DNA of 64,000 nucleotides from a virus: positions 37,211 to 101,210 of IMG/VR virus record IMGVR_UViG_3300043539_001475. One strand, written 5' to 3'. Positions 12,787 to 40,008 of this stretch are shown here, piece after piece; within the stretch, counting starts at the first letter, position 1; every line of letters begins with the position of its first letter. Below the pieces are notes generated by a model. The model did no database searches and was not told the DNA's origin. It saw only the letters and a list, made by a program, of their open reading frames with translations. Both the position numbers and the translations under genes were made by a program.

Positions 12787-13254
12787 ATGAAATTATCAGA
12801 GCATTTGGATTTATCAGAAGTAACAAGAAGTGAAACTGCAAAAAGAAAAGGTATTAGCAACATGCCGACACCAGAGCATTTGGAAAATTTTAAAAAATTG
12901 GCTGAAAATATTTTTGAACCGATTAGAAAACATTTTGGAGTGCCAATTCACATTTCAAGTGGATATAGAAGCAAGGCTTTAAATACTGCTATTGGCGGAA
13001 GTTTAACAAGTCAACATTGCCAAGGTGAGGCTATTGATATTGATATGGATGGTAGTTCTAATGGGGTTACTAACAAAATGGTATTTGACTACATAAAAGC
13101 TAATCTAAATTTTGACCAATTAATTTTTGAGTTTGGAACAAAAGATGCACCTGATTGGGTACACGTTTCATTTGAATCAACTGGAAAACAACGTAAGCAA
13201 ATTTTAAGAGCAATTAAAAGTGGTGGTAAAACTGCATACCAACCTTATGCGTAA
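12787..13254 (+). CDS. Peptidase M15A endolysin
   Basis: SSGYRS..LN..IGG, SQH..G.A.D and WVHVS motifs. Confidence 0.9.
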   Translation: MKLSEHLDLSEVTRSETAKRKGISNMPTPEHLENFKKLAENIFEPIRKHFGVPIHISSGYRSKALNTAIGGSLTSQHCQGEAIDIDMDGSSNGVTNKMVFDYIKANLNFDQLIFEFGTKDAPDWVHVSFESTGKQRKQILRAIKSGGKTAYQPYA

Positions 13255-14399: not shown

Positions 14400-15050
14400 A
14401 TGATTACAACAATTAACAAAAATAGGATATTTACATGGGTATTACTAATATCTTGCTTGGTACTAGTTTCACAACTATTTCAAAAATGCGAAAGTGAGAA
14501 ATTACAATTAGCTAACGTGGAAGCTCTAAATAGTCAATCTAAAGTTTATAAGCTTAAAAATGGACAATTAGTAACTAGCGTTGAAACTTTATCTTATAGC
14601 AATAGTCAGTTAAAAAACTCTATTGTAATGAAAGATAAAAAAGTTAAAGAGCTAACTAATAAATTTTCTAAAGTTCAATCTCTTACAAAGTATGTTACAA
14701 ACACAAAATTTGATACAATAGAGCTTCGATACAAAGATACCGTACCTTGCGTATTTGAAAGAAAAGATAGTTTATTAAAGGAATGGTATCATATAGCTTA
14801 TAAGTCAAATCAAAAGGGAATTGAAATAACCGAACTATCAATACCAGACAGTGTGATTGTAGTTACTGGAATTAAGAGAAAATGGTTTTTAGGTAAGCAA
14901 ACACAAACCACAGATATAACTCATGCAAACCCATTTGTTCAGACTAACAATGTTCAACACATTGAAGTAGTAACTCAAAAAAAATGGTACGATACTTTCC
15001 TATTTAAAGTCGGATTAGGATTTATAGGCGGAGTTTTAATAACTAAGTAA
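14400..15050 (+). CDS. Spanin-like protein
   Basis: N-terminal hydrophobic helix followed by Cys, coiled coil, DT.P beta region, C-terminal KWY..G..GG helix; last gene of the lysis cassette. Confidence 0.5.
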   Translation: MITTINKNRIFTWVLLISCLVLVSQLFQKCESEKLQLANVEALNSQSKVYKLKNGQLVTSVETLSYSNSQLKNSIVMKDKKVKELTNKFSKVQSLTKYVTNTKFDTIELRYKDTVPCVFERKDSLLKEWYHIAYKSNQKGIEITELSIPDSVIVVTGIKRKWFLGKQTQTTDITHANPFVQTNNVQHIEVVTQKKWYDTFLFKVGLGFIGGVLITK

Positions 15051-15483: not shown

Positions 15484-16185
15484 ATGTCAGTAAGAAATTA
15501 TTTAGCAAGAGCGCAAAGAAGCGCAATGGAGAATTTTTCTAATGCAGATGGATTTATAGATGATGATTTATCATTCTCTGGTGAAGACTTCTTCAATGCA
15601 CAAGGAAATTCAATGATAGGGCAACAAGCGGCTCAAACGTCTCAACCATATATTATAGATATTACATCTACTTCTGGTTCAGCAGTATCAAATTTTGAAG
15701 TATTAGGGTCTTACCAATACATCAATAACGCAGGTTTTACACCAAACGGAGAATTGACTATTGGGTCAATTACAGTTAGTTCTGGAATTTCAGACATCTC
15801 TTATAGAGAGATGCTATATCAATTTATGAACAATCCTTATTCTGTTGGTTTGACTTATATTCAATCAGCTACGGCTAACCAAGTATTAGAAACTCTTTCA
15901 GTTAACACTAAAGATGCAAATGGTAACTTGGCTCAAAAGACTTTAGTTCCGACTATTGACCCTTACCAACAACAAACTACAATCATTGCAATGAAATATG
16001 CTTATCGTATTGATGGTTTCACAAAAATCATCATCCGTCAAATTCTTGCAAATGCAACTGTAAAACTTTACTTCTACCCAGCAGACAACATAAACCTTGC
16101 TCGTGCTTTAGGAGGACAGTCAGTTAGTAAACAATTTGGTTCTCCAAAAGTTGCTAGTGGACAAACTATTAAGATTGCGCAATAA
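15484..16185 (+). CDS. Candidate major capsid protein (beta-rich, jelly-roll-like)
   Basis: Own promoter and strong terminator; high-expression codons (TTC, AAC, ATC, CGT); no TM; alternating beta pattern; paralog at 46907. Confidence 0.55.
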   Translation: MSVRNYLARAQRSAMENFSNADGFIDDDLSFSGEDFFNAQGNSMIGQQAAQTSQPYIIDITSTSGSAVSNFEVLGSYQYINNAGFTPNGELTIGSITVSSGISDISYREMLYQFMNNPYSVGLTYIQSATANQVLETLSVNTKDANGNLAQKTLVPTIDPYQQQTTIIAMKYAYRIDGFTKIIIRQILANATVKLYFYPADNINLARALGGQSVSKQFGSPKVASGQTIKIAQ

Positions 16186-23676: not shown

Positions 23677-24570
23677 ATGAGAAAAACATTAGCAAAAAAA
23701 ATGCCTTCTAAAGCATCTTCACCAACTAGCGGTGTTTTATTTAAACCATCAAAAGTTTTAGGTGTAAAAGTTCCAAGACCAGAAAAAAATAAAATTCAGC
23801 CAAGAATTTTAGGCGGAAAAATTGCACGACCATCCTCAAAATTAGTTGCGGATATTTCTTTAGGGCTAACACCTAAAAAGTCAAATGCAAATTTACCTAG
23901 CACAAGTTTAGCATCTTTATCTGATTGCGAACAAAAAGCAAGGCAAAAAATGTCGAATATGAGATTCATATCAGCTAAAGCTATGAGTGATTACAAAACA
24001 GACTTTATAGCTAAATGTATGGGCGTAAAAACAGTACTGCCAGTACCGCAAAGTATTCCACAAAAAGAACAAGAAAATAAATATTCGCAGATGTTAAGTA
24101 TGATACCTAATGAGTTTGTAATTAAGTCAAGTGGCTATAATACATCTTACTATAAAGGCAAATCTAATATTCATACAAAATTAAGCGCTACAACGGTTGG
24201 GATTGGTACTGGTTCTCCAATACAAATTTCTAATGAAGAATTTATAGATGCTTACAGTCAATTTTTGAAACAACCAAAAGTAATGATGCCGATAATGCCA
24301 TCAGCGCCATCAGCGCTATCAGCGCCATCAGCGCCATCAGCGCCATCAGAAATAACATCAGATTCAGAGTTAGAGCAAGAGCAAGAGTTAGAAACTATTA
24401 CTCCTAGTAATTCTGCTGATACTGTTGCTCCTATTAATCCTACTAATAATGGCACATCCAACATTCAAGTTAATAGTGCGCCTAAAACAAAAAAAACTAA
24501 TTACTTATTGTATTTTGTTTTGGCTATTTCTAGCGTAATAGTTTTAAAAAAATTTTTAAAAAAAAAATAA
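23677..24570 (+). CDS. Low-complexity C-terminal TM protein with ADISLGL motif
   Basis: ORF; (SAP)n 9-bp repeat at about 24298-24348. Confidence 0.7.
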   Translation: MRKTLAKKMPSKASSPTSGVLFKPSKVLGVKVPRPEKNKIQPRILGGKIARPSSKLVADISLGLTPKKSNANLPSTSLASLSDCEQKARQKMSNMRFISAKAMSDYKTDFIAKCMGVKTVLPVPQSIPQKEQENKYSQMLSMIPNEFVIKSSGYNTSYYKGKSNIHTKLSATTVGIGTGSPIQISNEEFIDAYSQFLKQPKVMMPIMPSAPSALSAPSAPSAPSEITSDSELEQEQELETITPSNSADTVAPINPTNNGTSNIQVNSAPKTKKTNYLLYFVLAISSVIVLKKFLKKK

Positions 24571-24571
24571 T

Positions 24572-24703
24572 ATGAAAAGCTCAACAATTTTATTAGTCGT
24601 TGGTGGATTAGCAATAGGTTATTTATATTTAGAAAATAAAAAACCACAATCTACCGTATCAAAAAAAGTCAAGCAAATCAATCAAAAGCTAAAACAACTT
24701 TAA
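24572..24703 (+). CDS. Array member 1 (43 aa, truncated; not in ORF track)
   Basis: [24 protein letters not shown]. Confidence 0.7.
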
Positions 24704-24713
24704 AAAAAATAAG

Positions 24714-25895
24714 ATGAAAAATTCAACAATTTTATTAGGCGTAGGTGGATTAGCAATAGCGTATTTTTATTTAAAAAATAAAAAACCACTATCTACTACA
24801 TCGACAACTCAAACAAATGAACCAACAGGTTCAACAGGTTCAACAGGTTCAACAGGTTCAACAGGTTCAACAGGTTCAACAGGTTCAACAGGTTCAACAA
24901 GTTCAACAGGGTCAACAGGGTCAACAGGGTCAACAGGGTCAACAGGGTCAACAGGGTCAACAGGGTCAACAGGGTCAACAGGGTCAACAGGGTCAACAGG
25001 GTCAACAGGGTCAACAGCATTAGTGGAAGAAATGGAAGAAATGGAACCAACGGTACAAACATCACCAACGGTACAAATACCTCCAACGGTACAAATACCT
25101 CCAACGGTACAAACATCACCAACGGTACAAATACCTCCAACGGTACAAATATCTCCAACGGTACAAACATTACCAACGGTACAAACATCACCAACGGTAC
25201 AAACATTACCAACGGTACAAATACCTCCAATAATTATACCTTCTGTGGCTGATATTTCTTTAGGATTACAACCTATAACTACAACTACAAAACCTACAGT
25301 AGACACGGTTGTATCGGCATTTGCAGAAACGCAAACTGAAAACTATAAAAAAGCAAGAGAATTGTCAAGAAATATTAGCGCTCTTTTAATTAAAGTTGAT
25401 TTATACAAAACTAAGAAAACTAAAAATAAAATCAGAAACGAAATATCAGATAAAACAAAGCAAGCAAATGCTTTGGGGTACAAAATATTGCCTTACGGTG
25501 AAATTGTAGCATTGAACGCTGTTGCAGATATTTCTTTAGGATTAAAACCAACAACCGCTAACACACCAAGTTTTTTGACAAGAATTTTAGGAGGAACACT
25601 TACACCAAGTGCTTTAACTCAAGCAAGTAGTATGTCAACTCCAGCAAGTAGTGTGAAAACTCTACCAAGTTTTTTAGGAGGAGGACGAAGTATTACACCA
25701 AGTGTTTTAACTCAAGCAAGTAGTATGTCAACTCCAGCAAGTAGTGTATCAACTCCAATAAATAGTATAAAAATTTTCGGAGGAAGAGTAATTCCAGTAA
25801 GCCCAACAAGTAGTGTAAAAACTCCGCCAATTTTTTTAGGGGGGCGAACAAGCGCAACAACAAATAGTTTTCTGTCAAAATTAAAAAGAAGATAA
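24714..25895 (+). CDS. Array member 2 (TM, GST and PTVQ repeats, NY..AK/NALGYK domain)
   Basis: ORF; shared motifs. Confidence 0.85.
24823..25230. repeat. Coding tandem repeats: 9-bp CAACAGG(T/G)T x about 22, then 18-bp PTVQ(T/I)x units
   Basis: Read directly; two homogeneous blocks (GGTT then GGGT). Confidence 0.95.
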
Positions 25896-25896
25896 T

Positions 25897-26823
25897 ATGA
25901 AAAGTTCAACAATATTAGGGGTTGGGATAATATCAGTAGTTGGTGTGGGTGCGTATTTTTATTTAAAAAATAAAAAACCACTATCGACAACATCGACAAC
26001 AGGGTCAACAGGGTCAACAGGGTCAACAGGGTCAACAGGGTCAACAGGGTCAACAGGGTCAACAGGGTCAACAGCATTAGTGGAAGAAATGGAAGAAATG
26101 GAACCAACGGTACAAACATCACCAACGGTACAAACATCGCCAACGGTACAAACATCGCCAACGGTACAAACATCGCCAACAATTACACCTTCTGTGGCTG
26201 ATATTTCTTTAGGATTACAACCTATAACTACAACTACAAAACCTACAGTAGACACGGTTGTATCGGCATTTGCAGAAACGCAAACTGAAAACTATAAAAA
26301 AGCAAGAGAATTGTCAAGAAATATTAGCGCTCTTTTAATTAAAGTTGATTTATACAAAACTAAGAAAACTAAAAATAAAATCAGAAACGAAATATCAGAT
26401 AAAACAAAGCAAGCAAATGCTTTGGGGTACAAAATATTGCCTTACGGTGAAATTGTAGCATTGAACGCTGTTGCAGATATTTCTTTAGGATTAAAACCAA
26501 CAACCGCTAACACACCAAGTTTTTTGACAAAAATTCTTGGACGAACACTTACACCAAGTGTTTTAACTCAAGCAAGTAGTATGTCAACTCCAGCAAGTAG
26601 TGTGAAAACTCTACCAAGTTTTTTAGGAGGAGGACGAAGTATTACACCAAGTGTTTTAACTCAAGCAAGTAGTGTATCAACTCCAATAAATAGTATAAAA
26701 ATTTTCGGAGGAAGAGTAATTCCAGTAAGCCCAACAAGTAGTGTAAAAACTCCGCCAATTTTTTTAGGAGGACGAACAAGCGCAACAACAAATACTTTTC
26801 TGTCAAAAGTAAAAAGAAGATAA
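25897..26823 (+). CDS. Array member 3 (near-duplicate of member 2 with fewer repeats)
   Basis: Long near-identical DNA with 25000-25895. Confidence 0.85.
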   Translation: MKSSTILGVGIISVVGVGAYFYLKNKKPLSTTSTTGSTGSTGSTGSTGSTGSTGSTGSTALVEEMEEMEPTVQTSPTVQTSPTVQTSPTVQTSPTITPSVADISLGLQPITTTTKPTVDTVVSAFAETQTENYKKARELSRNISALLIKVDLYKTKKTKNKIRNEISDKTKQANALGYKILPYGEIVALNAVADISLGLKPTTANTPSFLTKILGRTLTPSVLTQASSMSTPASSVKTLPSFLGGGRSITPSVLTQASSVSTPINSIKIFGGRVIPVSPTSSVKTPPIFLGGRTSATTNTFLSKVKRR

Positions 26824-26824
26824 T

Positions 26825-27157
26825 ATGAAAAGTTCAACAGTATTAGGAATTGGCTTATTAGCAGTACTCGGAGTAGGGGCTTATATTTATTTAAAAAATA
26901 AAAAAGCAACCAAATCAAGTGTAACTTTACCTAGCACAAAAAACACATCAAATACAACAGGCGTTAAAACTTCTTTGTCGGATGATTCTTTAGGATTAAA
27001 ACCAACTCCAACAAATATTGCAAAAACTTCTGTGTCGGATGCTTCTTTAGGATTAGAACCAACCCCAACAAGTAGTGTAAAAACTCGACCAATTTTTTTA
27101 GGGGGGCAAACAAATCCAGCAATAAGTATGATAATGTCAAAAGTAAAAAGAAGATAA
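26825..27157 (+). CDS. Array member 4 (lacks the NALGYK domain)
   Basis: MKSSTVLGIGLLAVLGVGAYIYLK; two D.SLGL motifs; SKVKRR end. Confidence 0.85.
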   Translation: MKSSTVLGIGLLAVLGVGAYIYLKNKKATKSSVTLPSTKNTSNTTGVKTSLSDDSLGLKPTPTNIAKTSVSDASLGLEPTPTSSVKTRPIFLGGQTNPAISMIMSKVKRR

Positions 27158-27158
27158 T

Positions 27159-27629
27159 ATGAAAAGCTCAACAATATTAGGTCTTGGGATAATATCAGTA
27201 ATTGGGGTGGGTACTTATATTTACTTAAAAAGTGGTAAAATACCATTTTTAGATAAATTTTTAGGAGAACTTTCTCCAACAAGCGGTAAAGTAAATAACA
27301 CGGGAAGTACAACAGCTACAACAGGCAGTACAACAACTCCAACAAGCAATAAACCAACAAATACAGCTTCTGTAGCTGATATTTCTTTAGGATTACAGCC
27401 TAAACCTACAGTAGATACAGTTGTTTCAGCATTTTCAGAAACACAAACTGAAAACTATAAAAAAGCAAGAGAATTGTCAAGAAATATTAGCGCTCTTTTA
27501 ATTAAAGTTGATTTATACAAAACTAAGAAAACTAAAAATAAAATCAGAAACGAAATATCAGATAAAACAAAGCAAGCAAATGCTTTGGGTTACAAAATAT
27601 TGCCTTACGGTGAAATCGAAAAAATGTAA
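27159..27629 (+). CDS. Array member 5
   Basis: N-part as member 8; C-domain identical to members 2 and 3. Confidence 0.85.
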   Translation: MKSSTILGLGIISVIGVGTYIYLKSGKIPFLDKFLGELSPTSGKVNNTGSTTATTGSTTTPTSNKPTNTASVADISLGLQPKPTVDTVVSAFSETQTENYKKARELSRNISALLIKVDLYKTKKTKNKIRNEISDKTKQANALGYKILPYGEIEKM

Positions 27630-27640
27630 ATTAAAATAAT

Positions 27641-28168
27641 ATGAAAAGTTCAACAGTATTAGGAATTGGCTTATTAGCAGTACTCGGAGTAGGGGCTTAT
27701 ATTTATTTAAAACGTAAAAAAGAAACCACATCAAGTGTAACTGCACCTAGCACAAAAAAAACATCACCAACGGTACAAACATCGCCAACGGTACAAACAT
27801 CGCCAACAATTACACCTTCTGTGGCGGATGCTTCTTTGGGTTTACAACCTAAAGCAACAATAGATACTGTTGTTTCAGCATTTTCAGAAACACAAACTGA
27901 AAACTATAAAAAAGCTAAAGTAATATCTAAAGAAATTGAAGTTTTGACTAATACTTTAAGAAATTTAGAAATTGATAAGAAAAAAGAAAGTTCTAAGCCT
28001 TTTACAACGGGAAATTATATGGCTGGCGTGAGGGCTAATGCTGGTAAAAATGTGGCTAGTATTATATTTGCAATTAGAAGTGTTCAAAAACAAATGTCAG
28101 AAAAAACAGCTCAAGCAAATGCTTTAGGTTACAAAATATTACCTTATGGCGAAATCGAAAAAATGTAA
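27641..28168 (+). CDS. Array member 6
   Basis: Conserved ends, unique centre. Confidence 0.85.
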   Translation: MKSSTVLGIGLLAVLGVGAYIYLKRKKETTSSVTAPSTKKTSPTVQTSPTVQTSPTITPSVADASLGLQPKATIDTVVSAFSETQTENYKKAKVISKEIEVLTNTLRNLEIDKKKESSKPFTTGNYMAGVRANAGKNVASIIFAIRSVQKQMSEKTAQANALGYKILPYGEIEKM

Positions 28169-28179
28169 ATTAAAATAAT

Positions 28180-28671
28180 ATGAAAAGTTCAACAGTATTA
28201 GGAATTGGATTATTAGCAGTACTCGGAGTAGGGGCTTATATTTATTTAAAAAATAAAAAAGCAACCACATCAAGTGTAACTGTACCTAGCACAAAAAAAA
28301 CATCAAATACAACAAGCGTTACACCTTCTGTGGCGGATGCTTCTTTGGGTTTACAACCTAAAGCAACAATAGATACTGTTGTTTCAGCATTTTCAGAAAC
28401 ACAAACTGAAAACTATAAAAAAGCTAAAGTAATATCCAAAGAGGTTGAAGTTTTGAATAATAGATTAAGAACTTTAAACAGTGATTATGCAAGAGAGAGA
28501 AGTAAACCTTTTATAATAGGAAATAGCATGACTGGTTTTAGACCTGATAACAAATCAGCTCAAATTAAATTACAAATTAATTCTGTTGAAAAACAAATGT
28601 CAGAAAAAACAGCTCAAGCAAATGCTTTAGGTTACAAAATATTACCTTATGGCGAAATCGAAAAAATGTAA
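28180..28671 (+). CDS. Array member 7
   Basis: Conserved ends, unique centre. Confidence 0.85.
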   Translation: MKSSTVLGIGLLAVLGVGAYIYLKNKKATTSSVTVPSTKKTSNTTSVTPSVADASLGLQPKATIDTVVSAFSETQTENYKKAKVISKEVEVLNNRLRTLNSDYARERSKPFIIGNSMTGFRPDNKSAQIKLQINSVEKQMSEKTAQANALGYKILPYGEIEKM

Positions 28672-28710
28672 ATTAAAATAATGTAAATTAAAATAATGTA
28701 AATTAAAATA
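28666..28710. repeat. 15-bp junction repeat (ATGTAAATTAAAATA)x3; also x2 at 29265-29294
   Basis: Read directly. Confidence 0.95.
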
Positions 28711-28712
28711 AT

Positions 28713-29270
28713 ATGAAAAGTTCAACAGTATTAGGAATTGGCTTATTAGCAGTACTCGGAGTAGGGACTTATATTTACTTAAAAAGTGGTAAAATACCAT
28801 TTTTAGATAAATTTTCAGGAGAACTTTCTCCAACAAGCGGTAAAGTAAATAACACGGGAAGTACAACAGCCCCAACAAATGGTACAAAAAATCCAAGAAA
28901 AGGTTTTTTGACAAAAATTCTTGGACGAACACGTCCAAAAGCAAGCACACCATCCATAGCTGATACTTCTTTAGGGTTACAGCCTAAAGCTACAATAGAT
29001 ACTGTTATATCTATTGTTTCAGAAACACAAACTGAAAACTATAAAAAAGCTAAAGTGCTATCTAAAGATATTGAAGTTTTGATGGTAGAATTGAAAAATG
29101 CAGAAAATGAATTAAAAAGTTTTGATTACAAACCTATGACTACTTTTGAAACAAAAGCTCGTAAAAGGGAAGACATTGCGATAATTAAAAAACGAATGTC
29201 AGAAAAAACATCTCAAGCAAATGCTTTAGGTTACAAAATATTACCTTATGGCGAAATCGAAAAAATGTAA
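28713..29270 (+). CDS. Array member 8
   Basis: Conserved ends, unique centre. Confidence 0.85.
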   Translation: MKSSTVLGIGLLAVLGVGTYIYLKSGKIPFLDKFSGELSPTSGKVNNTGSTTAPTNGTKNPRKGFLTKILGRTRPKASTPSIADTSLGLQPKATIDTVISIVSETQTENYKKAKVLSKDIEVLMVELKNAENELKSFDYKPMTTFETKARKREDIAIIKKRMSEKTSQANALGYKILPYGEIEKM

Positions 29271-29296
29271 ATTAAAATAATGTAAATTAAAATAAT

Positions 29297-29716
29297 ATGA
29301 AAAGTTCAACAGTATTAGGAATTGGCTTATTAGCAGTACTCGGAGTAGGGGCTTATATTTATTTAAAACGTAAAAAAGCAACCGAATCAAGTGTAACTGT
29401 ACCTAGCACAAAAAACACATCAAATACAACAAGCGTTACACCTTCTGTGGCTGATGCTTCTTTAGGTTTGCCTACAAAAGTAACTGCTAGTGCAGAAGAG
29501 CAAAAAAACTATTTGGAAGCAAAAGACTTGGCTAGGATTTTATTACTAGATAATGCGAAGGTATTTGATAATGAGTTTAAATTATTAATTACAAAATATG
29601 GAATTAAATGGAATCCTATGTTGAGGCTTACGAGTATTTGGAGTAAAGCTCAAACTAAAAGAATAAACGCATTAGGCTACAAAGTGTTGCCTAACTACGA
29701 TATTGAAAAAATGTAA
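29297..29716 (+). CDS. Array member 9
   Basis: Ends NALGYKVLPNYDIEKM. Confidence 0.85.
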   Translation: MKSSTVLGIGLLAVLGVGAYIYLKRKKATESSVTVPSTKNTSNTTSVTPSVADASLGLPTKVTASAEEQKNYLEAKDLARILLLDNAKVFDNEFKLLITKYGIKWNPMLRLTSIWSKAQTKRINALGYKVLPNYDIEKM

Positions 29717-29723
29717 ATAAAAT

Positions 29724-30095
29724 ATGGCTCTTAATAAATATACACAACAAGAATTTTCAGATTGTATATTACTCGATGCAAAATTGCGTAAGAGTATAAT
29801 TATTGTTGCTGATTTGCAAAAAAAGAAACTTTCAGGAGGATTTAGTGCAATGGACAATCTTTTATTGAATCAAGAAATTGAGTTAAAAAATAAAAGGGAA
29901 ATGGAATTTTCTAAATCATCTTGTGCAAATAAAATTGAGTACAAAAGATTATTAGAAACTGGTCAAATTACTACTGAAATGGCTAAAAAGCAAGAAGATG
30001 ACATTTTGCCTAAAAATAACAATGAGCAGTACATTTACATTGGAATAGGAGTAGTTGTATTAATAACAAGTTTATATTTAATATTAAAGAAATAA
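29724..30095 (+). CDS. Cys-pair helical protein with C-terminal TM (paralog of 62814)
   Basis: CI.LD..L, SC..KIE..RL.ET and YI.IG..VLIT shared with 62814. Confidence 0.8.
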   Translation: MALNKYTQQEFSDCILLDAKLRKSIIIVADLQKKKLSGGFSAMDNLLLNQEIELKNKREMEFSKSSCANKIEYKRLLETGQITTEMAKKQEDDILPKNNNEQYIYIGIGVVVLITSLYLILKK

Positions 30096-30472
30096 TGGCA
30101 GTATCATCAAAAGATTTAGCTAAAGAATTTCCATACACCGAAGATTGTGAGTTATTGGCAAAACAAATTGATTTGCTTGTAATAAACAAAGAATATTGGA
30201 GTAGGCAATCTAATAATTCAGAAGCAGACGCTACAAATAATTATTTATCAGCTAAAAGAAAGTGGTATAATGTCTACGGGTGTCTTTCTAAAGTAAACGC
30301 TATAAAAATGAAAGATGTTAGCGGTGTTTTTAATGCTTTTGGCGAAGAAGACAAATTAAGAATAGAAAAACAAATAGCTTCAGAAGTAAAAAAAAGGAAC
30401 ATTATCGGATTATCAGTGTTAATGGTATCTTTGCTTATGATAATTATTTTAAGTGAGATTAGAAAAAAATAA
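30095..30472 (+). CDS. Cys-pair helical protein with C-terminal TM (paralog of 63368)
   Basis: C..K, D..RI...I and R..IG.SVL shared with 63368. Confidence 0.8.
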   Translation: MAVSSKDLAKEFPYTEDCELLAKQIDLLVINKEYWSRQSNNSEADATNNYLSAKRKWYNVYGCLSKVNAIKMKDVSGVFNAFGEEDKLRIEKQIASEVKKRNIIGLSVLMVSLLMIIILSEIRKK

Positions 30473-30476
30473 TAAT

Positions 30477-31091
30477 ATGAAAAATTCAACAATATTAGGA
30501 ATTGGCTTATTATCAGTAGTTGGAGTAGGTGCTTATATTTATCTAAAAGGTAAAAAAACAACAAATATAACAAGCGGTGCATCCTCTGTAGTAAATAGTT
30601 CTTTAGGATTGTCTACTGCATCAACAAATCCTACAACTGAAAATACAAAATTATTGCAGGATTTGGGTGTAATAATAACACCCACAACTGTAACTTTAAA
30701 TATTAAGCCAAACGAAGGTGTTCCTTTGCTTACAACCGAAAAGATACAAAACGCCTTGTCGGCTTTAGGTATAGACCCAACAAAGTCTATTTCTAAAGAA
30801 TTGACTCTTCCTAACTATGTTGAAGCTAAAAAAATAGCTAGTGACATGAAGATAATTAATGATGGAGCAGGTGCAATTGACCCATATAGAAATCCTACAA
30901 AATGGATTTACCCAAAAGAAATATTAAACAAATTTTCTAGTTTAGCAGGACAAACGGTAACTTCAACCGCATCATATCGTAATCCCCCTGAGCTTAAACC
31001 TAGTCGTTCAGAGTTATTAGCAAATATGACCAAAAAAGTAAACGCATTAGGCTACAAAGTGTTGCCTAACTACGATATTGAAAAAATGTAA
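30477..31091 (+). CDS. Array member 10
   Basis: ATG at 30477 (MKNSTILGIG); ends NALGYKVLPNYDIEKM. Confidence 0.85.
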   Translation: MKNSTILGIGLLSVVGVGAYIYLKGKKTTNITSGASSVVNSSLGLSTASTNPTTENTKLLQDLGVIITPTTVTLNIKPNEGVPLLTTEKIQNALSALGIDPTKSISKELTLPNYVEAKKIASDMKIINDGAGAIDPYRNPTKWIYPKEILNKFSSLAGQTVTSTASYRNPPELKPSRSELLANMTKKVNALGYKVLPNYDIEKM

Positions 31092-31094
31092 ATT

Positions 31095-31289
31095 ATGCCA
31101 GCAGGAAAAATATACGATACAGACGAAACAACTAGAATAAAAGATTTTCTAAATATTCAGACTAAAGAATTGAAAGCTTTAGAATCAGAAAAATCGGTTA
31201 CAGATAAAACTGTAATTCGTTATGCTATAGTCATCTCTGGTGCTGTAATTGTTTTGTTAGCAGTAAAGTTTTTAACAAGAAAAAAATAA
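31095..31289 (+). CDS. Small C-terminal TM protein
   Basis: DET..I...ESEK.V resembles the 62814 tail. Confidence 0.7.
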   Translation: MPAGKIYDTDETTRIKDFLNIQTKELKALESEKSVTDKTVIRYAIVISGAVIVLLAVKFLTRKK

Positions 31290-31290
31290 A

Positions 31291-31827
31291 ATGGGAAAAT
31301 CGACAACATTAGGAATTGGATTATTAGCAGTACTCGGAGCAGGTGCTTATATTTATCTAAAAAATAAAAAAGCAACCACGCCAAGTGGAATTATTGATAA
31401 CACAACAAATAAAACTGGAATTGTAACGCCTCCAAAAAAAGGTTTATTACCAAGTTTTTTAGGAGGAACACCTCCAAAAGCAAGCACACCATCAATAGCT
31501 GATACGTCTTTAGGATTACAGCCTACAACTACAACAGCTACAATAGACGAAACTAAAACAAATAATTATATTATTGCTAAAAATCTTTCATTAGAAATAA
31601 TGGATTTGCAAAAAAAGATTAACAATTTATCTATTGATTTTCAAAAAATATTTCCTAAAAGTCGAATGGAAATGGACATGTATCAAAATATGGAAGTTGA
31701 CAGAGAGAGAAAAACAAAAGTTGATTTGCCAAAGATGGTAATGACTAGAGATATGCAGAAAAAATCATCAGAAGCAAACGCTTTGGGTTACAAAATATTG
31801 CCTTACGGTTTAATTGAAAAAATGTAA
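31291..31827 (+). CDS. Array member 11
   Basis: IDETKTNNYI.AK to [16 protein letters not shown]. Confidence 0.85.
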   Translation: MGKSTTLGIGLLAVLGAGAYIYLKNKKATTPSGIIDNTTNKTGIVTPPKKGLLPSFLGGTPPKASTPSIADTSLGLQPTTTTATIDETKTNNYIIAKNLSLEIMDLQKKINNLSIDFQKIFPKSRMEMDMYQNMEVDRERKTKVDLPKMVMTRDMQKKSSEANALGYKILPYGLIEKM

Positions 31828-31832
31828 ATAAA

Positions 31833-32366
31833 ATGGAAAAATCAACAGCATTGGGAATTGGCTTATTAGCAGTAGTGGGAGTAGGCGCTTATGTTTATTT
31901 AAAAAGAAAAAAATCAACTACAACTACAACTACAACCACCTCATCTTCTGCGGTAGATAGCTCTTTAGGACTACCTGCCGTAACTACAACTACTTCGGTA
32001 GTAGATACTGCAACTGGTGCGACTAAAACAACTAAAACAGATACAACAAGCGGAACTGCTGTAACTACTGTAACAAATGTAATAGACGAGACTAAAACTA
32101 ATAATTACATCATGGCAAAAAAGATTTCAGAGGAAATAGCAAGTTTGCAAGATGAAATCAATAAATTAGAATTAGAATTTACTAAATGGTCTAAAGATTT
32201 TAGATTTCGTGGGGTAGGAAGTCGAACAGCTTATATAAATTCACAACGGGTTGATATGGTTACTAAACCTATTTATGGTATAAAAATAAAAATGCAAAAC
32301 CTAACACCTCAAGCAAACGCTTTGGGTTACAAAATATTGCCTTACGGTTTAATTGAAAAAATGTAA
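31833..32366 (+). CDS. Array member 12
   Basis: IDETKTNNYI.AK to [16 protein letters not shown]. Confidence 0.85.
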   Translation: MEKSTALGIGLLAVVGVGAYVYLKRKKSTTTTTTTTSSSAVDSSLGLPAVTTTTSVVDTATGATKTTKTDTTSGTAVTTVTNVIDETKTNNYIMAKKISEEIASLQDEINKLELEFTKWSKDFRFRGVGSRTAYINSQRVDMVTKPIYGIKIKMQNLTPQANALGYKILPYGLIEKM

Positions 32367-32377
32367 ATTAAAATAAC

Positions 32378-32941
32378 ATGAAAAAATCTTTGTTAATAAT
32401 AGGTGGATTTGGTGTAATTGGTTTTGCACTATATCGTTATTTTAAGTATCAGGTAGAGTTAGCTTTGCAATATGACTACAATGTTAAAAACCTTAATGTT
32501 GTAAGTGTAGATGAAAACAAAGTTAACGTAACGGTTGATTTTGATATTACTAACAAATCTAGCTTTGAGATAATATTAAATAGCTATGATTTAGAATTTT
32601 ACTTTAAAGATGTACCGTTTGGAACCTCTTTTTCTGCAAATCCTATAAAAATCATGCCTAACAGTAAGTTTACAGTAAAAGCTAATGGGATTATTGATGC
32701 AAATGCAGTAAAGTCTTCTGCGTTAGCCTTAGCTTCTGATATATGGGCTAGGAAGCCAATAAATATACAACTTAAAGGAAAAATGAAAATTAAATTTTTA
32801 GGTATTAACACTACCCTTAATTTTGACAAAGAAAGTTTCGAATATTCAGCAGACTTGTTGAAAGATTACGGACTAGATAAGCCTTTGCATAATTTAGCAG
32901 TAAAATATCCAAAATTAGGTAGCGTATTAAGAATAAAATAA
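32378..32941 (+). CDS. LEA_2/WHy-like beta-sandwich protein with N-terminal TM
   Basis: F.ITN.S.F.I.L....E.Y....FG..I.I.PN pattern. Confidence 0.65.
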   Translation: MKKSLLIIGGFGVIGFALYRYFKYQVELALQYDYNVKNLNVVSVDENKVNVTVDFDITNKSSFEIILNSYDLEFYFKDVPFGTSFSANPIKIMPNSKFTVKANGIIDANAVKSSALALASDIWARKPINIQLKGKMKIKFLGINTTLNFDKESFEYSADLLKDYGLDKPLHNLAVKYPKLGSVLRIK

Positions 32942-33718: not shown

Positions 33719-36700
33719 ATGGGAAATGTAACTAAATCACAAGCAAATAATATAAGAACGCCAGACGGTAACAGTCTAGCTGTTTTTGTTGACGGAGTAA
33801 GCGGAATAATAAAGGTAAAAGATATAATGGGTAACATTCAACCGTTATCTGATTATATAAGTGGTGGTGGCGGAGGAGGATGTAGCCCTTTTCAATACGA
33901 TGCTAACGCAACGGGTATAGAGCCAATACTAGGCACTAATAATGCTTCGGGTTGTTTTGCTACTATTGGAGGAGGTGGCACTAATAATGCTTCTGGATGT
34001 TTTTCTGCAATTGTTGGAGGTAGTAACAATACTGCTACTGCAAATTGCTCAACAGTTGGTGGGGGGTCTCTCAATACAGCTACTGGAACCTGCTCTACTG
34101 TTAGCGGAGGTCGATGTAATAGTGCTTTAAATGCTAGTGCAACAGCTGGAGGAGGTTTTAGAAATATCGCTTGTGGTCAAGGGTCAATAATTGGAGGTGG
34201 TGTTTGTAATACTGCTTTTGGATTTTGCTCAACAATAGGAGGTGGGGAATCTAATACTGCTAATGGATATTGCTCAACAATAGGTGGTGGTATTTGTAAT
34301 GTTACTAACGGATATGGTTCAACTGTGGCTGGGGGTAGTTTTAATAAGGCTTTTAGTCAAGACGTAACAGTTGGAGGGGGGCAATCTAATATTGCTTGCG
34401 CTAGTAAATCAACAATTGCGGGAGGTTATACCAATACTATTTGCCTTGGAGCTGATAATTCAGCAATAGGCGGAGGTTCAACTAATATTGTTTCTGCAAC
34501 TGCTTCTTCTTCGACAATTGGTGGTGGTTGTGGTAATACTGCTTCTAATGTTTGGTCAACACTAGGTGGTGGTTATAGTAATACTGCTTCTAACATTAAA
34601 TCAACAGTTGGTGGGGGTGGAAATAATACTGCTTCTGGTTATAGTTCAACAGTTGTTGGAGGTTGTCAAAATACAGCTTCTGGCTGTAATTCAGCTGTTG
34701 CAGGTGGACAATATAACCTTTCTTCTGGTATTAAATCAACAGTTGGTGGAGGTAGCAATAATACTGCTTCTGCAAATTGCTCAATAGTTGCAGGTGGTTG
34801 TACTAATACTGCTTCTGGATGTTGGTCAGGAATAGTTGGAGGTCGTAGAAACACTTCTTGTGGAAATTATTCGATTGTTTCAGGTGGTTATTGCAACACA
34901 GCTAACGGAGTACTCTCTTTTATAGGTAGTGGAAAATGTAACAGAATATTCCCTTCTGCAAATCTTGGCGGTAGTGCAAGATATGGAGATGTAATAGCAG
35001 GGGGTTGTAAAAATACCATTAATACTAATACTTATGCTACTACTTACTCGCCTGTTGGAGGAAGTACAATTTCTGGAGGGGTTTGTAATGTCATAACGCC
35101 TTACCAAGGAAGTGTGACAATTAGTGGCGGTACTAATAATATAGCGCAATGTGATTTAACAACAGTTGGAGGTGGTGTGCAGAATACTGCTTCTGGATGT
35201 TATTCTGTAATTGGTGGCGGTTCTGGCAATACTACATCTCAAAAAGGTTCAGTCATTTCTGGAGGTCAAGGTAATACTGCATCAAATTATTTTGCATCTT
35301 CACTTGGAGGTAAGTCAAATATTGTTAGTGGTACATACTCTTCAATTGTAGGAGGTAAGATAAATGTTAATTCAGGCTATCAGTCGTCAATTTTAGGAGG
35401 AACTTACAATGTTATGTGCGGTACTCAATCAGTAATAGGTGGTGGTTTTTGCAACATTAATTCAGGTACAACCTCAACAATTGGTGGTGGTAATACTAAC
35501 AATGCTTCTAATACAGACACAACAATTGGCGGAGGTTCAAATAATACTGCTTCTGCTTGCCGTTCAACAATTGGCGGAGGTGCTTTTAATACTGCTTCTG
35601 CAACTGTTTCAACCGTAGGAGCTGGTTGTTGCAACATAACAAATTCAAGGTTTTCATTTATTGGAGGAGGACAAAGAAATATAATTCAATCGCCAACAAA
35701 CGAATGTTGTTCTCTTGGAGTTACAATAGGCGGTGGTATTGGTCATAATACAAATGGCGGAACTTTTAACGCTACTACTGGGATTTTAAGTGGCGCAATT
35801 ACTTGTTGTAATGCTGGTAAATTATCTACAATTGGAGGTGGTTTTAGAAATAAAGCTATTGGTTCTTGTTCAACAGTTGGAGGAGGCTTAAGCAATGTTG
35901 CTTCTACTGACTCAACCATTGGAGGTGGTTTTTGTAACAATGCTTCTAATAGTAGTTCAACAATTGGAGGAGGTGGTACTAACACTGCATCGGGAGTTTC
36001 TTCAACAGTTGGTGGTGGTGGTCAATGCTACAATAATGGGGGTTTTTATGGCACTGGAAATATTGCTTCTGGTACGTCATCAACAGTTAGTGGTGGTCAG
36101 GGAAATACTGCATCGGGAATTGCTTCAAAAGTTGGTGGGGGTTGTTATAATACTGCTTCTGGATGTTATTCTGTAATCGGGGGTGGTTGTTTAAATACTG
36201 CTTCTGTTTCTCTATCAACGGTTGGAGGAGGCTCAAGCAATATTGCTTGTAGTACAGCAACAGTTGGGGGTGGTTTTAGTAATACTGCGTGTGGCGATGT
36301 TTCAACAATTAGTGGGGGTTGTTATAACAATGCTTCTGCTTCTTATTCAACAATTGGTGGAGGTCGGCAAAATACTGCTTGTGGAAATGCTTCGTCAATT
36401 GGAGGGGGTTGTTATAATACTGCTTCTGCTTGCCGTTCAACAATTGGTGGAGGTGCTTTTAATACTGCTTCTGCAACTGTTTCAACCGTAGGAGCTGGTT
36501 GTTGCAACATAACAAATTCAAGGTTTTCATTTATTGGAGGAGGACAAAGAAATATAATTCAATCGCCAACAAACGAATGTTGTTCTCTTGGAGTTACAAT
36601 AGGCGGTGGTGTTGGTCATAATACTACTGGAGGAACTTTTAATGCCTCTACGGGAGATTTAACTGGCGCAATTACTTGTTGTAATGCTGGTAAATTATCT

Positions 36701-37420
36701 ACAATTGCAGGTGGTTTTAGAAATAAAGCTACTGGTTGTTTGTCAACAGTTGGAGGTGGTGCATCTAATACTTCCTCTAATTATCACTCAACCGTTGGAG
36801 GTGGTTTTAGTAACAATGCTTCTAATAATAGTTCAACAATTGGAGGAGGTGGTATTAACACTGCATCGGGAGTTTCTTCAACAGTTGGTGGTGGTGGTCA
36901 ATTCTACAGTAGTGGGGGTACTTATGGCGCTCCAAATATTGCTTCTGGTACGTCATCAACAGTTAGTGGTGGTCAGGGAAATACTGCATCGGGAATTGCT
37001 TCAAAAGTTGGTGGTGGTTATAGTAATACTGCTTCTGGATGTTATTCTGTAATCGGGGGTGGTTGTACAAATACTGCTTCTGTTTCTCTATCAACGGTTG
37101 GAGGAGGCTCAAGCAATACTGCTTCTGGTTTAGCAACAATTGGGGGTGGTTTTGGAAATCTTGCGTCTGGCTGTATTTCAACAATTAGTGGGGGTTGTTA
37201 TAATACTGCTTCTGGAATTAGTTCTAGTATCTTAGGAGGTGAATCAAATAGCACAAACACTTGTGCTTGTGCAATGATTGTAGGCTCTAATATTACAGCA
37301 AACAGAGCTTGTGCTACATTTGTAAATAATCTTTCTATTACAAACATCCCAACATCATCAGCAGGTTTACCTACTGGTTCTGTATGGAGTAATTCAGGAA
37401 TTTTGACAATAGTTCCGTAA
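33719..37420 (+). CDS. Gly/Ser/Cys-rich beta-solenoid fibre protein 1
   Basis: About 14-aa ST(V/I)GGG..N.ASG repeats; IPTSSAGLP.GSVW C-terminal cap. Confidence 0.8.
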   Translation: MGNVTKSQANNIRTPDGNSLAVFVDGVSGIIKVKDIMGNIQPLSDYISGGGGGGCSPFQYDANATGIEPILGTNNASGCFATIGGGGTNNASGCFSAIVGGSNNTATANCSTVGGGSLNTATGTCSTVSGGRCNSALNASATAGGGFRNIACGQGSIIGGGVCNTAFGFCSTIGGGESNTANGYCSTIGGGICNVTNGYGSTVAGGSFNKAFSQDVTVGGGQSNIACASKSTIAGGYTNTICLGADNSAIGGGSTNIVSATASSSTIGGGCGNTASNVWSTLGGGYSNTASNIKSTVGGGGNNTASGYSSTVVGGCQNTASGCNSAVAGGQYNLSSGIKSTVGGGSNNTASANCSIVAGGCTNTASGCWSGIVGGRRNTSCGNYSIVSGGYCNTANGVLSFIGSGKCNRIFPSANLGGSARYGDVIAGGCKNTINTNTYATTYSPVGGSTISGGVCNVITPYQGSVTISGGTNNIAQCDLTTVGGGVQNTASGCYSVIGGGSGNTTSQKGSVISGGQGNTASNYFASSLGGKSNIVSGTYSSIVGGKINVNSGYQSSILGGTYNVMCGTQSVIGGGFCNINSGTTSTIGGGNTNNASNTDTTIGGGSNNTASACRSTIGGGAFNTASATVSTVGAGCCNITNSRFSFIGGGQRNIIQSPTNECCSLGVTIGGGIGHNTNGGTFNATTGILSGAITCCNAGKLSTIGGGFRNKAIGSCSTVGGGLSNVASTDSTIGGGFCNNASNSSSTIGGGGTNTASGVSSTVGGGGQCYNNGGFYGTGNIASGTSSTVSGGQGNTASGIASKVGGGCYNTASGCYSVIGGGCLNTASVSLSTVGGGSSNIACSTATVGGGFSNTACGDVSTISGGCYNNASASYSTIGGGRQNTACGNASSIGGGCYNTASACRSTIGGGAFNTASATVSTVGAGCCNITNSRFSFIGGGQRNIIQSPTNECCSLGVTIGGGVGHNTTGGTFNASTGDLTGAITCCNAGKLSTIAGGFRNKATGCLSTVGGGASNTSSNYHSTVGGGFSNNASNNSSTIGGGGINTASGVSSTVGGGGQFYSSGGTYGAPNIASGTSSTVSGGQGNTASGIASKVGGGYSNTASGCYSVIGGGCTNTASVSLSTVGGGSSNTASGLATIGGGFGNLASGCISTISGGCYNTASGISSSILGGESNSTNTCACAMIVGSNITANRACATFVNNLSITNIPTSSAGLPTGSVWSNSGILTIVP

Positions 37421-37435
37421 ATAAAAACATAAAAA

Positions 37436-37696
37436 ATGAATAAACTAGAAATAGTAGTTGGAAGTTTGCAAATATCAAATGGAGGTGTAATAATACTTGT
37501 TATTCCAAAAGATGCGTGTGCTATTGATACGTTAGCTTTACAAAATACAATTCCTATTGCTTCAATTTTTAATAAATATTTAGCGAACTTTACATCAGTA
37601 TTTAATCAGCCTTTATCAAATTGTGTTGATTCAACTAATACTGTATTTACACAAAGTACTTTTATTGCTTTTGCCGAAGCTAATTTAGGGTTTTAA
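37436..37696 (+). CDS. Stand-alone 86-aa fibre adaptor ('LGF') domain
   Basis: Homologous to the N-termini of 1984, 37706 and 40009; ends FAEANLGF. Confidence 0.8.
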   Translation: MNKLEIVVGSLQISNGGVIILVIPKDACAIDTLALQNTIPIASIFNKYLANFTSVFNQPLSNCVDSTNTVFTQSTFIAFAEANLGF

Positions 37697-37705
37697 AAAA
37701 AAATA

Positions 37706-39997: not shown

Positions 39998-40008
39998 AAA
40001 AAATAATA

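Follow-up and report, generated by a model that had tools for sequence, protein, structure and literature searches.

Introduction

The MGF110/360/505 genes of ASFV and the poxvirus K3L "genomic accordion" are tandem paralogs whose copy number differs between close isolates through homologous recombination, and the multigene families of large eukaryotic DNA viruses, some of which consist of small membrane or secretory proteins, are thought to serve interaction with the host. Mosaic surface lipoproteins with cleaved signal peptides, and often with phase variation, make up the Erp and Mlp families of the Borrelia cp32 prophage and the Mycoplasma Vlp and Vsa families. PRD1 P16, PM2 P3 and P6 and the minor capsid proteins of PBCV-1 are membrane-anchored, single-copy and conserved; we know of no 12-member mosaic family among the minor proteins of internal-membrane viruses. 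The lactococcal exclusion proteins of the Sie2009 type (Sie2009/Ltp) also carry an N-terminal anchor, and each is encoded by one gene that is expressed either early or by the prophage.

The uncultured lake virus IMGVR_UViG_3300043539_001475 (101 kb; CheckV completeness 100%) encodes a previously undescribed family of small membrane-anchored proteins with constant ends and a differing middle, which we analyzed in a stretch of 64,000 nucleotides (positions 37,211 to 101,210 of the record; hereafter, the window). A first-pass annotation had described these genes as a 12-paralog array and had seen in them an accordion-like diversification system, lacking a reverse transcriptase or site-specific recombinase, that displays variable helical-hairpin tips on the virion or host membrane, with putative roles in receptor range, superinfection exclusion or decoy. 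Our results uphold the accordion-like change, the variable tips and the lack of such enzymes, but not the existence of a dedicated diversification system.

Results

Analysis of the ORFs and their translations does return 12 members, all on the + strand, at positions 24572-32366 of the window (Table 1). The array takes up 7.8 kb, or ~8% of the virus genome, and sits in a co-directional late/structural block with the capsid gene on one side and fibre-like giant proteins on the other; no + strand terminator was predicted from the capsid gene to the array, and 36 of the 77 + strand ORFs in 1-48600 encode a single TM helix. The abundant 233-aa protein yields a jelly-roll model (pLDDT 85.6) whose matches to capsid or penton proteins of PR772, phiCjT23, FLiP, PM2 and PBCV-1 are weak (Z 5-6.7, under the tool's trust level), a 272-aa ATPase has weak HerA/AAA matches, and no Terminase_6N, HK97-capsid or portal match was found in Pfam. 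On these models the virus looks like a jelly-roll, membrane-containing type, although, the capsid fold matches being weak, its membrane-containing nature is itself something that we infer. The host is a bacterium, probably one of the Bacteroidota.

Table 1. Positions in the window of the array members and of other features discussed in the text
Feature	Position	Strand	Length	Description
Jelly-roll protein	15484-16185	+	233 aa	Probable capsid protein; same co-directional gene block as array
Upstream C-anchored protein	23677-24570	+	297 aa	Short motifs ILGG and ADISLGL in common with array stalks
m0	24572-24703	+	43 aa	Head only, truncated (translation)
m1	24714-25895	+	393 aa	Head, repeat stalk, hairpin domain, fused m3-like tail
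m2	25897-26823	+	308 aa	Recent tandem duplicate of m1
m3	26825-27157	+	110 aa	Head and motif-only stalk (2x DxSLGL, FLGG, KRR end), without hairpin domain
m4	27159-27629	+	156 aa	Mosaic with IEKM tail
m5	27641-28168	+	175 aa	Member modelled by AlphaFold2
m6	28180-28671	+	163 aa	Closest paralog of m5; missing from contig L003
15-bp junction repeat (AAATAATGTAAATTA)	28661-28712	+		x3.5, between m6 and m7
m7	28713-29270	+	185 aa	m3/5/6/8-group head, m4-like stalk, unique centre, m5/m6-identical tail
m8	29297-29716	+	139 aa	Head shared with m5 (99% identity), centre unique, VLPNYDIEKM-type tail shared with m9 (98% identity)
t1	29724-30095	+	123 aa	Interleaved, C-terminally anchored, unrelated to array family
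t2	30095-30472	+	125 aa	Interleaved, C-terminally anchored, unrelated to array family
m9	30477-31091	+	204 aa	Stalk and centre both long; orthologs in L006, L008, L014-L016, L018
t3	31095-31289	+	64 aa	Interleaved, C-terminally anchored, unrelated to array family; kept across relatives
m10	31291-31827	+	178 aa	
m11	31833-32366	+	177 aa	Tail shared with m10 (100% identity)
RecT-type annealing protein	48719-49588	-		PF03837 (E 2.7e-30); phrog_148 (E 3e-51)
Exonuclease	49823-50608	-		Adjacent to RecT; phrog_69 (E 4e-5)

A full member is built of four parts: a Gly-rich membrane helix at the N-terminus with a Lys cluster behind it, both present in every member of the array; a Ser/Thr/Pro stalk, disordered and 32-171 residues long, with a DxSLGL motif; a basic antiparallel helical hairpin (pI 9.1-9.8); and a C-terminal beta-hairpin. 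Stalk and basic hairpin are present in most members, and motif counts place (D/N)x(S/T)LGL in 11/12, NY..A(K/R) and NALGYK(I/V)LP in 10/12 and the terminal IEKM in the eight previously reported (m4-m11). The AlphaFold2 model of m5, based on a 37-sequence alignment, comprises a TM helix (residues 6-26), a disordered stretch (27-64), a helical hairpin (87-117/132-161; pLDDT above 90 in both helices) and the C-terminal beta-hairpin. The alignment is invariant at several positions of the head (G16, G18, Y20, Y22, K27) and of the hairpin base (Y89, A92, N160, L162-K165, L167, I172, K174), where NY..AK starts helix 1 and NALGYK(I/V)LP..IEKM closes helix 2; beyond the base, the outer two thirds of the hairpin can vary freely, with centres of 35-69 residues that all read as basic helical hairpins. 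Taken together, model and column conservation agree with the notion of variable hairpin tips set upon a conserved base. Since the Lys cluster follows the TM helix, the domain is predicted to lie on the cytoplasmic (capsid-facing) side, which fits poorly with the long mucin-like stalks, as these usually project from an outer surface. The proposed surface display, on virion or cell, is putative, as is the location in the virion, which is suggested by gene position and by the richness of the module in membrane proteins.

Self-BLAST and module-wise identity matrices confirm that modules have been swapped at the DNA level. The genes are mosaics, since the nearest relatives of the head, the stalk, the centre and the tail do not agree: m4 (member 5 of the first-pass annotation, which saw in it the head of member 8 joined to the domain of members 2 and 3) joins a stalk like that of m7 (87% nt) to a centre 100% identical to those of m1 and m2, and the tail sharing noted for members 9/10 and 11/12 amounts to 98% (m8/m9) and 100% (m10/m11) identity. 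That the centres are unrelated between members is true of several (those of m7 and m8 are unique) but not of m1, m2 and m4, which have one common centre, nor of m5 and m6, whose centres are 74% identical at the nucleotide level within frames of 100% identity. Alternative sub-segments occur among orthologs in the centre of m11. Heads cluster by genome and not by centre type (83-99% identity inside one genome versus 51-81% between same-centre orthologs), thereby pointing to concerted evolution. Both m1 and m2 have lost the IEKM stop and are fused to an m3-like tail, which in m1 carries DISLGL and FLGG motifs and a KRR end; the two genes are 93.6% identical over 823 bp (25155-25977 versus 26104-26905; self-BLAST), and the stalk repeats of m1, (GST)x22 and (PTVQxx)x10 (9-bp unit x21.7, 18-bp unit x9.8), are shorter in m2 (9-bp x8.7, 18-bp x4.3). 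The stub m0 is the remnant of a partial duplication of a junction plus head, the region 24560-24654 being 89% identical to 24702-24796 (self-BLAST).

The repeats of the array are its gene junctions (self-BLAST). Because members abut with spacers of 1-41 nt, tail codons, spacer and head codons form a direct repeat of 85-100% identity; the 15-bp unit AAATAATGTAAATTA recurs x2.5 at 29260-29296 and once at the other IEKM junctions, and no inverted repeats or attC-like hairpins were found at any member junction. The RecT and exonuclease genes pointed out earlier are supported by Pfam and PHROG matches (Table 1) and may drive recombination of the array. The whole 101-kb genome contains neither a reverse transcriptase nor a site-specific recombinase, with no match to RVT_1, Phage_integrase or YqaJ.

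Pooled over six independent ortholog pairs, dN/dS is 0.05 in the tail (dS 0.57), 0.30 in frame N and 0.81 in the centre (Fisher's test, p = 3e-7). Strong purifying selection acts on the tail and keeps the hairpin base constant, and the centre evolves near neutrality. Centre values above 1, which are confounded by recombination between alleles, occur in only some pairs, several others giving 0.24-0.57, and a centre dN/dS of ~0.8 can equally reflect relaxed constraint or a selected variable contact.

In related metagenome contigs the members number 3 to 4 or more, and chimeras and an extra member are found; these contigs are short-read assemblies over repeats of 60-250 identical bases, so that some variants, L003 especially, could be misassemblies. 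In L003, m5 is joined straight to m7, without m6. Contig L005 is identical to the window from m6 to m10 (28350-31535; 100% over 3186 bp) and then runs into an extra chimeric member in which, as in Logan contigs, the head and stalk of m10 occur a second time; L007 matches 30778-31834 at 99% identity. Lake metagenome runs of 2016, 2020 and 2024 contain a matching joint together with loose ends that carry alternative centres. Only 2 members precede the t1/t2 pair in L006, and L016 has 3 members in total; t1 and t2, which match no Pfam or PHROG family, are kept in both, and t1-like genes are present in L020-L027. The accordion-like change is thereby borne out as gain, loss, chimerism and gene conversion between conserved gene junctions.

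Distant IMG/VR relatives carry N-anchored genes with an L..LGY...L.K(I/L) tail that match the array family (hhalign probability 98.1%, E 8.6e-14), and copy number runs from 1-3 in these relatives through 3 to 4 or more in closer ones to 12 in the window genome. No member of the family occurs in 185,579 prokaryote genomes, so that the family is purely viral, and the presence of at least one member in every relative examined suggests a core role.

Discussion

We lean, with some reserve, toward a joint reading in which an ancestral virus membrane protein underwent lineage-specific, recombination-driven amplification and its descendants are made late and reside in the membrane of a jelly-roll virus. 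The starting point would have been an ancestral family of single-pass membrane proteins, specific to viruses and amplified in one lineage, with homologous recombination between junction repeats driving the changes in the array: unequal crossing-over would add, delete and fuse members, gene conversion would homogenise heads and tails in each genome and leave the centres to their own lineages, and the virus's own RecT and exonuclease may help, no dedicated mutator or site-specific recombinase being involved. Less certainly, the members would be made along with the structural genes and sit in the lipid membrane of a particle of the jelly-roll-capsid, FtsK/HerA-ATPase type, where the conserved anchor and C-terminal tail would make constant contacts and the variable tips a strain-specific one, either to the host or to other parts of the virion.

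Misassembly of a repeat-rich region in a mixed population is a very improbable origin for the array or for a large share of its copies. Logan contigs do break at nearly all junctions, the 12-copy count and the m0-m5 order derive from the window's own record, no independent contig spanning m0-m5 or the whole array, and L003 and L005 contradict the window; yet L005 and L007 also reproduce long parts of it, the unique centre or stalk sequence of each member is found at 99% identity or more in runs from 2016-2024, and arrays belonging to this family recur in independent relatives. By contig depth, the additional member of L005 seems to be present at roughly single-copy level in three runs, and the window may therefore be one member short. 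The framing of variable centres by constant sequence also recalls cassette systems, but a dedicated machine acting on the array, whether by DGR-like mutagenic retrohoming or by integron-like or invertase-driven cassette exchange, is extremely improbable in a genome of 100% CheckV completeness with no reverse transcriptase or tyrosine recombinase, whose junctions lack inverted repeats and attC-like hairpins and whose centres are unrelated sequences and not point-mutated copies of one template. Nothing marks a dedicated system of diversification, and ordinary homologous recombination in a multigene family reads best.

The members could instead act outside the virion, being inserted during infection into the cytoplasmic membrane of the host, where they might, for example, exclude superinfecting phages, interfere with host defences at the membrane or control lysis; the variable tips would then track variable host or competitor targets. 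We consider this unlikely but deserving of weight: small N-anchored proteins with polymorphic C-terminal domains are also seen among known exclusion proteins, the family is purely viral and accessory in copy number (1-12 across relatives) and some centres show dN/dS above 1, whereas the array lies inside the late/structural block with no predicted terminator ahead, the family's occurrence in every relative speaks for a core role, and no family with a role in exclusion or lysis was matched in PHROG or Pfam, the best hit being an Rz-like spanin (E 0.069). It is likewise improbable that the expansion reflects dosage or is nearly neutral, the anchor and hairpin base being what matters and the centre a drifting, low-constraint spacer whose variability has no function. 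The near-neutral pooled centre dN/dS, centre lengths that vary while all remain basic helical hairpins, the threefold occurrence of one centre (m1, m2, m4), the domainless m3 and the stub m0 would all suit such drift; however, distinct centre types stay recognisable as orthologs even between genomes in which divergence or conversion has altered the heads, the lower dN/dS of several centre pairs indicates purifying selection on particular types, and ~8% of the genome is a high price for drift.

Compared with the described systems, the array resembles diversity-generating retroelements in that a variable region is framed by constant sequence, but it has no reverse transcriptase, template repeat or adenine-specific pattern, and its centres are unrelated. 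Proteins of the Sie2009 type are of similar size (~110-200 aa), are likewise anchored in the membrane at the N-terminus and are polymorphic from phage to phage; the array, in contrast, has twelve genes in a late structural block, and PHROG and Pfam searches detected no homology to phage superinfection-exclusion proteins. Like the loci of the PRD1, PM2 and PBCV-1 minor proteins, the array encodes small single-pass membrane proteins in a structural module with a jelly-roll capsid and an FtsK/HerA-type ATPase, and docking on the capsid by way of a conserved extramembrane end is conceivable, although no sequence or fold similarity to these proteins was found. The Erp/Mlp and Vlp/Vsa families share with it a constant N-terminal membrane-targeting head before a variable, recombining remainder, the many paralogs and internal tandem repeats that change in number; unlike theirs, the head of the array proteins is an uncleaved TM helix, the C-terminal tail is strictly conserved and the members are apparently co-transcribed. 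Finally, ASFV MGF and poxvirus K3L likewise form tandem paralog arrays of variable copy number in large dsDNA viruses, but here the proteins are unrelated, the host is a bacterium (probably one of the Bacteroidota), the conserved blocks are the gene junctions and the concerted evolution of the ends is demonstrable.

Results

Composition of the array and anatomy of its members

The source record is linear, 101,210 bp long and 100% complete according to CheckV, and the window is its right-hand 64 kb; open reading frames and their translations place in it twelve genes of a single family (m0 to m11), which are tightly packed with spacers of 1-41 nt and interleaved with three genes of another kind (t1 to t3; see table). 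Aligning eight window members with 29 metagenomic homologs reveals invariant columns in the membrane head (G16, G18, Y20, Y22 and K27 in m5 numbering) and in two short frames, namely NY..A(K) and the final 16 residues, NALGYK(I/V)L....I.K(M). The AlphaFold2 model of m5 built with this alignment contains a transmembrane helix (6-26) and a disordered stalk (27-64). The DxSLGL motif forms a short helix; next come two long antiparallel helices (87-117 and 132-161), both above pLDDT 90, which make up a hairpin, and the chain ends in a small beta-hairpin. It is at the base of the helical hairpin that the conserved frames come together, with the variable centre forming its distal part and loop; the variable helical tip proposed in the first-pass annotation holds. 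All member domains are basic (pI 9.1-9.8), and the stalks span 32-171 residues, 43-68% of which are Ser, Thr, Pro or Gly.

The family itself is undescribed, and the virus lineage that carries it is unusual, abundant and uncultured. Pfam, PHROG and the PDB yielded no counterpart, and the literature searched mentions neither the family nor a phage with an array of this kind; GenBank phage searches with the array DNA, m5 and a neighbouring 392-aa protein gave no match, scanning IMG/VR with the family alignment gave no relative, and the same alignment found the family in none of 185,579 prokaryote genomes (GTDB). A longer fused form (414-2000 aa) was not found either, which is weak evidence. Searches with the m5 model (Foldseek against the PDB and BFVD, a structural search of the ESM Atlas, and a sequence-profile search of the PDB) returned only generic coiled coils and helical hairpins, among them prefoldin beta, Pat1 and DotF (E 0.15), and give no functional lead. 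Beyond the stalk repeats of m1 and m2, Pfam and PHROG had no family match for the array members. These (GST)n repeats match only collagen-like and tail-fibre low-complexity models (tail-fibre PHROGs at E 1e-16 to 1e-5; PF01391 at 33.9 bits for m1), all of these matches being confined to the repeat at about residues 37-115; G-S-T is formally Gly-X-Y, the repeat is missing from ten of the twelve members, and we read the similarity as probably one of low complexity.

Short motifs, (A)DxSLGL and (F/I)(L/F)GG, recur in the stalks or C-terminal extensions of m1-m3, m7 and m10 and in an upstream 297-aa protein; a basic SK(L/V)KRR closes m1-m3. The shared motifs could be docking or processing sites. 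Reading FLGG/ILGG as adenain-type Gly-Gly cleavage sites was considered and kept as an observation. Interpreting the LGY tail as a truncated PG_binding_1 motif was dropped after the domain failed to match, both in eight relatives that bear the tail (E up to 1) and in the array members (E up to 0.1).

Locations of the array genes and of other features (window coordinates unless a related locus, L, is named)
Feature	Location	Strand	Remarks
Array	24572-32366	+	twelve genes of one family
m0		+	43 aa; stub, head only
m1, m2		+	393 aa, 308 aa; long members
m3		+	110 aa; without hairpin domain
m4-m11		+	139-204 aa; standard form
t1, t2	29724-30472		interleaved in array; C-terminally anchored, unrelated to family
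t3	31095-31289		as t1 and t2
Extra chimeric member	L005 2942-3541		between t3 and m10, versus window 31289-31291
Longer member	L013 3-752		
Short-motif stretches	25500-25895, 26450-26823, 26960-27157, 23800-23900		
LEA_2-domain gene	32378-32941		PF03168; downstream of array, conserved
Tandem N-anchored pairs	L021 5262-6154; L025 8540-9590; L027 5244-6107		identical heads, different bodies
RecT	48719-49588		
Exonuclease	49823-50608		
Single-TM proteins with shared anchor signature	567-48600	+	about 36
PAP2 phosphatase-family protein	8917-9561		E 2.7e-12
M15 peptidase	12787-13254		
PAS-domain protein	13279-14394		
DUF6549 protein	14400-15050		
Jelly-roll protein	15484-16185	+	233 aa
Gly/Ser/Asn-rich repeat proteins	33719-42843		1233, 763 and 960 aa
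Sulfotransferase	43306-44124		PF13469, E 9e-19
Giant proteins	L002 106-4923; L019 393-8120		1605 and 2575 aa; genome 20.1-37.6 kb

Mosaicism and gene conversion

Self-BLAST of the array identifies the gene junction as the repeated unit: the tail codons, the spacer and the head codons that follow recur with 85-100% identity. The centres do not match one another. Identity matrices drawn up module by module are incongruent: the closest heads are those of m3, m5, m6, m7 and m8 (94-99%); stalks pair m4 with m7 (87%), m5 with m6 (97%) and m6 with m8 (93%); the centres of m1, m2 and m4 are 100% identical and the rest unrelated; and tails are shared by m5, m6 and m7, by m8 and m9 (98%) and by m10 and m11. 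Unrelated centres have 59-75% nucleotide identity, which is noise level, and the only near-identical pair with point differences, m5/m6, differs throughout. Heads group by genome rather than by centre type, those of L006 (a syntenic contig), of L016 (a more distant relative) and of the window each being alike, whereas orthologs with the same centre have heads only 51-81% identical, a combination that is the signature of gene conversion. Short units also differ in number: a 9-bp GST unit is present 21.7 times in m1 and 8.7 times in m2, an 18-bp PTVQ unit in 9.8, 4.3 and 2.7 copies, and a 15-bp spacer unit in 1, 2.5 and 3.5 copies.

Variation among related genomes

The family comprises 65 clusters at 90% identity, all of them metagenomic and mostly from fresh water. 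Among the sixteen JGI loci retrieved, L005 is 100% identical to window 28350-31535 and then carries an extra chimeric member that combines the head and stalk of m10 and the Thr-rich segment of m11 with a different centre; after it comes a further m10-like head. L003 joins m5 straight to m7; L006, a 29-kb contig whose jelly-roll protein is about 90% identical to that of the window, has two members ahead of the t1/t2 pair and two or more behind it; and L016 has three in total. In a longer member in L013 the hairpin domain is preceded by a (TTP)n repeat and a globular segment that contains Cys; the N-terminus of this member is lost at the contig end.

At least 17 lake-water runs from 2016-2024 contain half or more of the array's sampled words. 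Logan contigs from four runs were mapped to the array from m3 onwards, and the L005-type joint (31526 to 31982) was recovered in runs of 2016, 2020 and 2024; loose ends run into alternative centres, one of which reads HIESLLIKIK, as does the L005 centre. The joint is flanked by only 21 bases, and all variant contigs are short-read assemblies across repeats, so that single variants may be misassemblies, L003 above all; the overall picture is that the locus differs between co-occurring genomes. In each of three runs the joint contig is about as deep as the unique t1-t2-m9 contig, which puts the extra member at about single-copy depth and hints that the window assembly may have dropped or collapsed one member. 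Depth served as evidence at this point only, and with caution. The array accounts for the fragmentation of short-read assemblies in this region and, being traceable in lake metagenomes from 2016 to 2024, would allow turnover rates to be measured with long reads.

Equivalent modules in nine IMG/VR relatives retrieved through the LEA_2 gene encode one to three N-anchored proteins in which a Ser/Thr stalk and a helical region precede a related C-terminal tail, L..LGY......L.K(I/L), and profile-profile comparison with the family alignment matches them over the full length (98.1% probability, E 8.6e-14). The family is thus old in this virus group and amplified in the lineage of the window. In two of these genomes the N-anchored genes form tandem pairs with identical heads; head homogenisation looks like a general feature of the group.

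Selection on the modules

Pooling six independent ortholog pairs (Nei-Gojobori) gave dN/dS of 0.05 for the tail (last 16 codons; dS 0.57), 0.30 for the NY..AK frame, 0.54 for the head, 0.52 for the stalk and 0.81 for the centre, with a significant contrast between centre and frames (Fisher p = 3e-7). The tail peptide is therefore strongly constrained as protein and is not merely a substrate for recombination. The centre is near neutral when pooled, with dN/dS above 1 in four pairs and 0.24-0.57 in others; m11 orthologs combine alternative sub-segments differently, and such inter-allele recombination raises some of the values that exceed 1. At this locus nature offers a clean example of gene ends that undergo concerted evolution next to centres that evolve independently.

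Discussion

Direct repeats at the borders, incongruent modules, homogenisation within genomes and copy-number differences among relatives are all found here, and the array follows a known evolutionary pattern, that of a tandem multigene family in which unequal crossing-over and gene conversion are at work. The mosaic array reported in the first-pass annotation is fully real and far beyond chance, and its description as accordion-like is borne out by the self-BLAST, the module matrices and the contig comparison, which reveal members gained and lost, chimeras and junction repeats. The further notions of a dedicated diversification system and of display for receptor range, superinfection exclusion or decoy are not supported; general homologous recombination between the junction repeats suffices for everything observed.

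Two specialised mechanisms were weighed and rejected. Against a diversity-generating retroelement, the reverse transcriptase model PF00078, which matched control genomes, has no match in the whole 101-kb genome, confirming the absence first claimed for the vicinity, and the centres are either identical or unrelated, with no adenine-biased pair of template and variable repeats. Against an integron-like or other site-specific cassette system, no inverted repeats were found at the member junctions and PF00589 is without a match in the whole genome, so that the claimed lack of a site-specific recombinase holds for the tyrosine type. RecT and an exonuclease are encoded, as had been stated, and YqaJ nuclease had no match in the genome; the viral RecT may contribute to recombination of the array.

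What the proteins do is a separate matter. Altogether 36 of the 77 + strand ORFs in 1-48600 encode a single N- or C-terminal transmembrane helix, the Lys/Arg cluster always following the helix. The jelly-roll protein of the same co-directional block (1898 clusters at 90% identity and 566 at 50%), whose virus group is very abundant in fresh water, is confidently modelled as a jelly roll (pLDDT 85.6) with weak best matches (Z 5-6.7) that include penton or capsid proteins of PR772, phiCjT23, FLiP, PM2, PRD1 and PBCV-1; a 272-aa ATPase has weak HerA/AAA matches, three Pfam models for tailed-phage hallmarks had no match, and no terminator was predicted on the + strand between the gene of the jelly-roll protein, the putative capsid gene, and the array. 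On these grounds we hold it about as likely as not that the members are made late and belong to the lipid membrane of the particle. Rz-type i-spanins were also considered and rejected: the best PHROG match (phrog_739, E 0.069) concerns one member only, the array is 10 kb from the lysis cassette (12.5-15 kb), and the lipoprotein partner is absent.

By the positive-inside rule the member domain would face the cytoplasm and the capsid; projection from a free surface would suit the long, mucin-like stalks better. Co-folding the jelly-roll protein with member domain residues 66-175 scored 0.00, which argues neither for nor against binding. The single-TM proteins share an anchor signature at either terminus, comprising a Gly-rich helix, an aromatic residue and the Lys/Arg cluster on the C-terminal side. 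If all these helices have the same polarity, the soluble domains of N-anchored and C-anchored proteins lie on opposite faces, and one class would have to translocate a large domain with no signal peptide.

Several neighbours deserve mention in their own right. Some representatives of the jelly-roll protein, about 400 aa long, contain two matched stretches and may have the jelly roll twice in tandem. Behind the array come three large Gly/Ser/Asn-rich repeat proteins, probable fibres or spikes with weak matches to UspA1-type adhesin repeats. The M15 peptidase and the DUF6549 protein flank a protein that has a pair of PAS domains and, at its C-terminus, two transmembrane helices, and together these genes look like a lysis cassette. 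The sulfotransferase and the PAP2 protein, both among structural genes, may serve lipid or glycan modification. Of two giant proteins, the 1605-aa one is, as its DUF5661, DUF5824 and ART-PolyVal domains indicate, a "polyvalent protein", a type that phages and conjugative elements deliver along with DNA; the 2575-aa one has no Pfam match.

Should the members be virion-membrane proteins, they would, to our knowledge, be the first multigene, recombining membrane-protein family in a bacterial virus, and would offer a handle on host adaptation in such viruses without tail fibres. An unlikely proposal is that a tailless virus with a membrane encodes in the array a repertoire of contact modules that can stand in for one another. 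The common anchor and docking tail would let members occupy equivalent positions in the particle's membrane layer, the differing hairpin tips would decide which host strains are entered or which host factor is engaged, and RecT-driven shuffling at the constant junctions would generate new combinations in natural populations. Such a repertoire would be a recombination-based counterpart of diversification by tail fibres or by diversity-generating retroelements.
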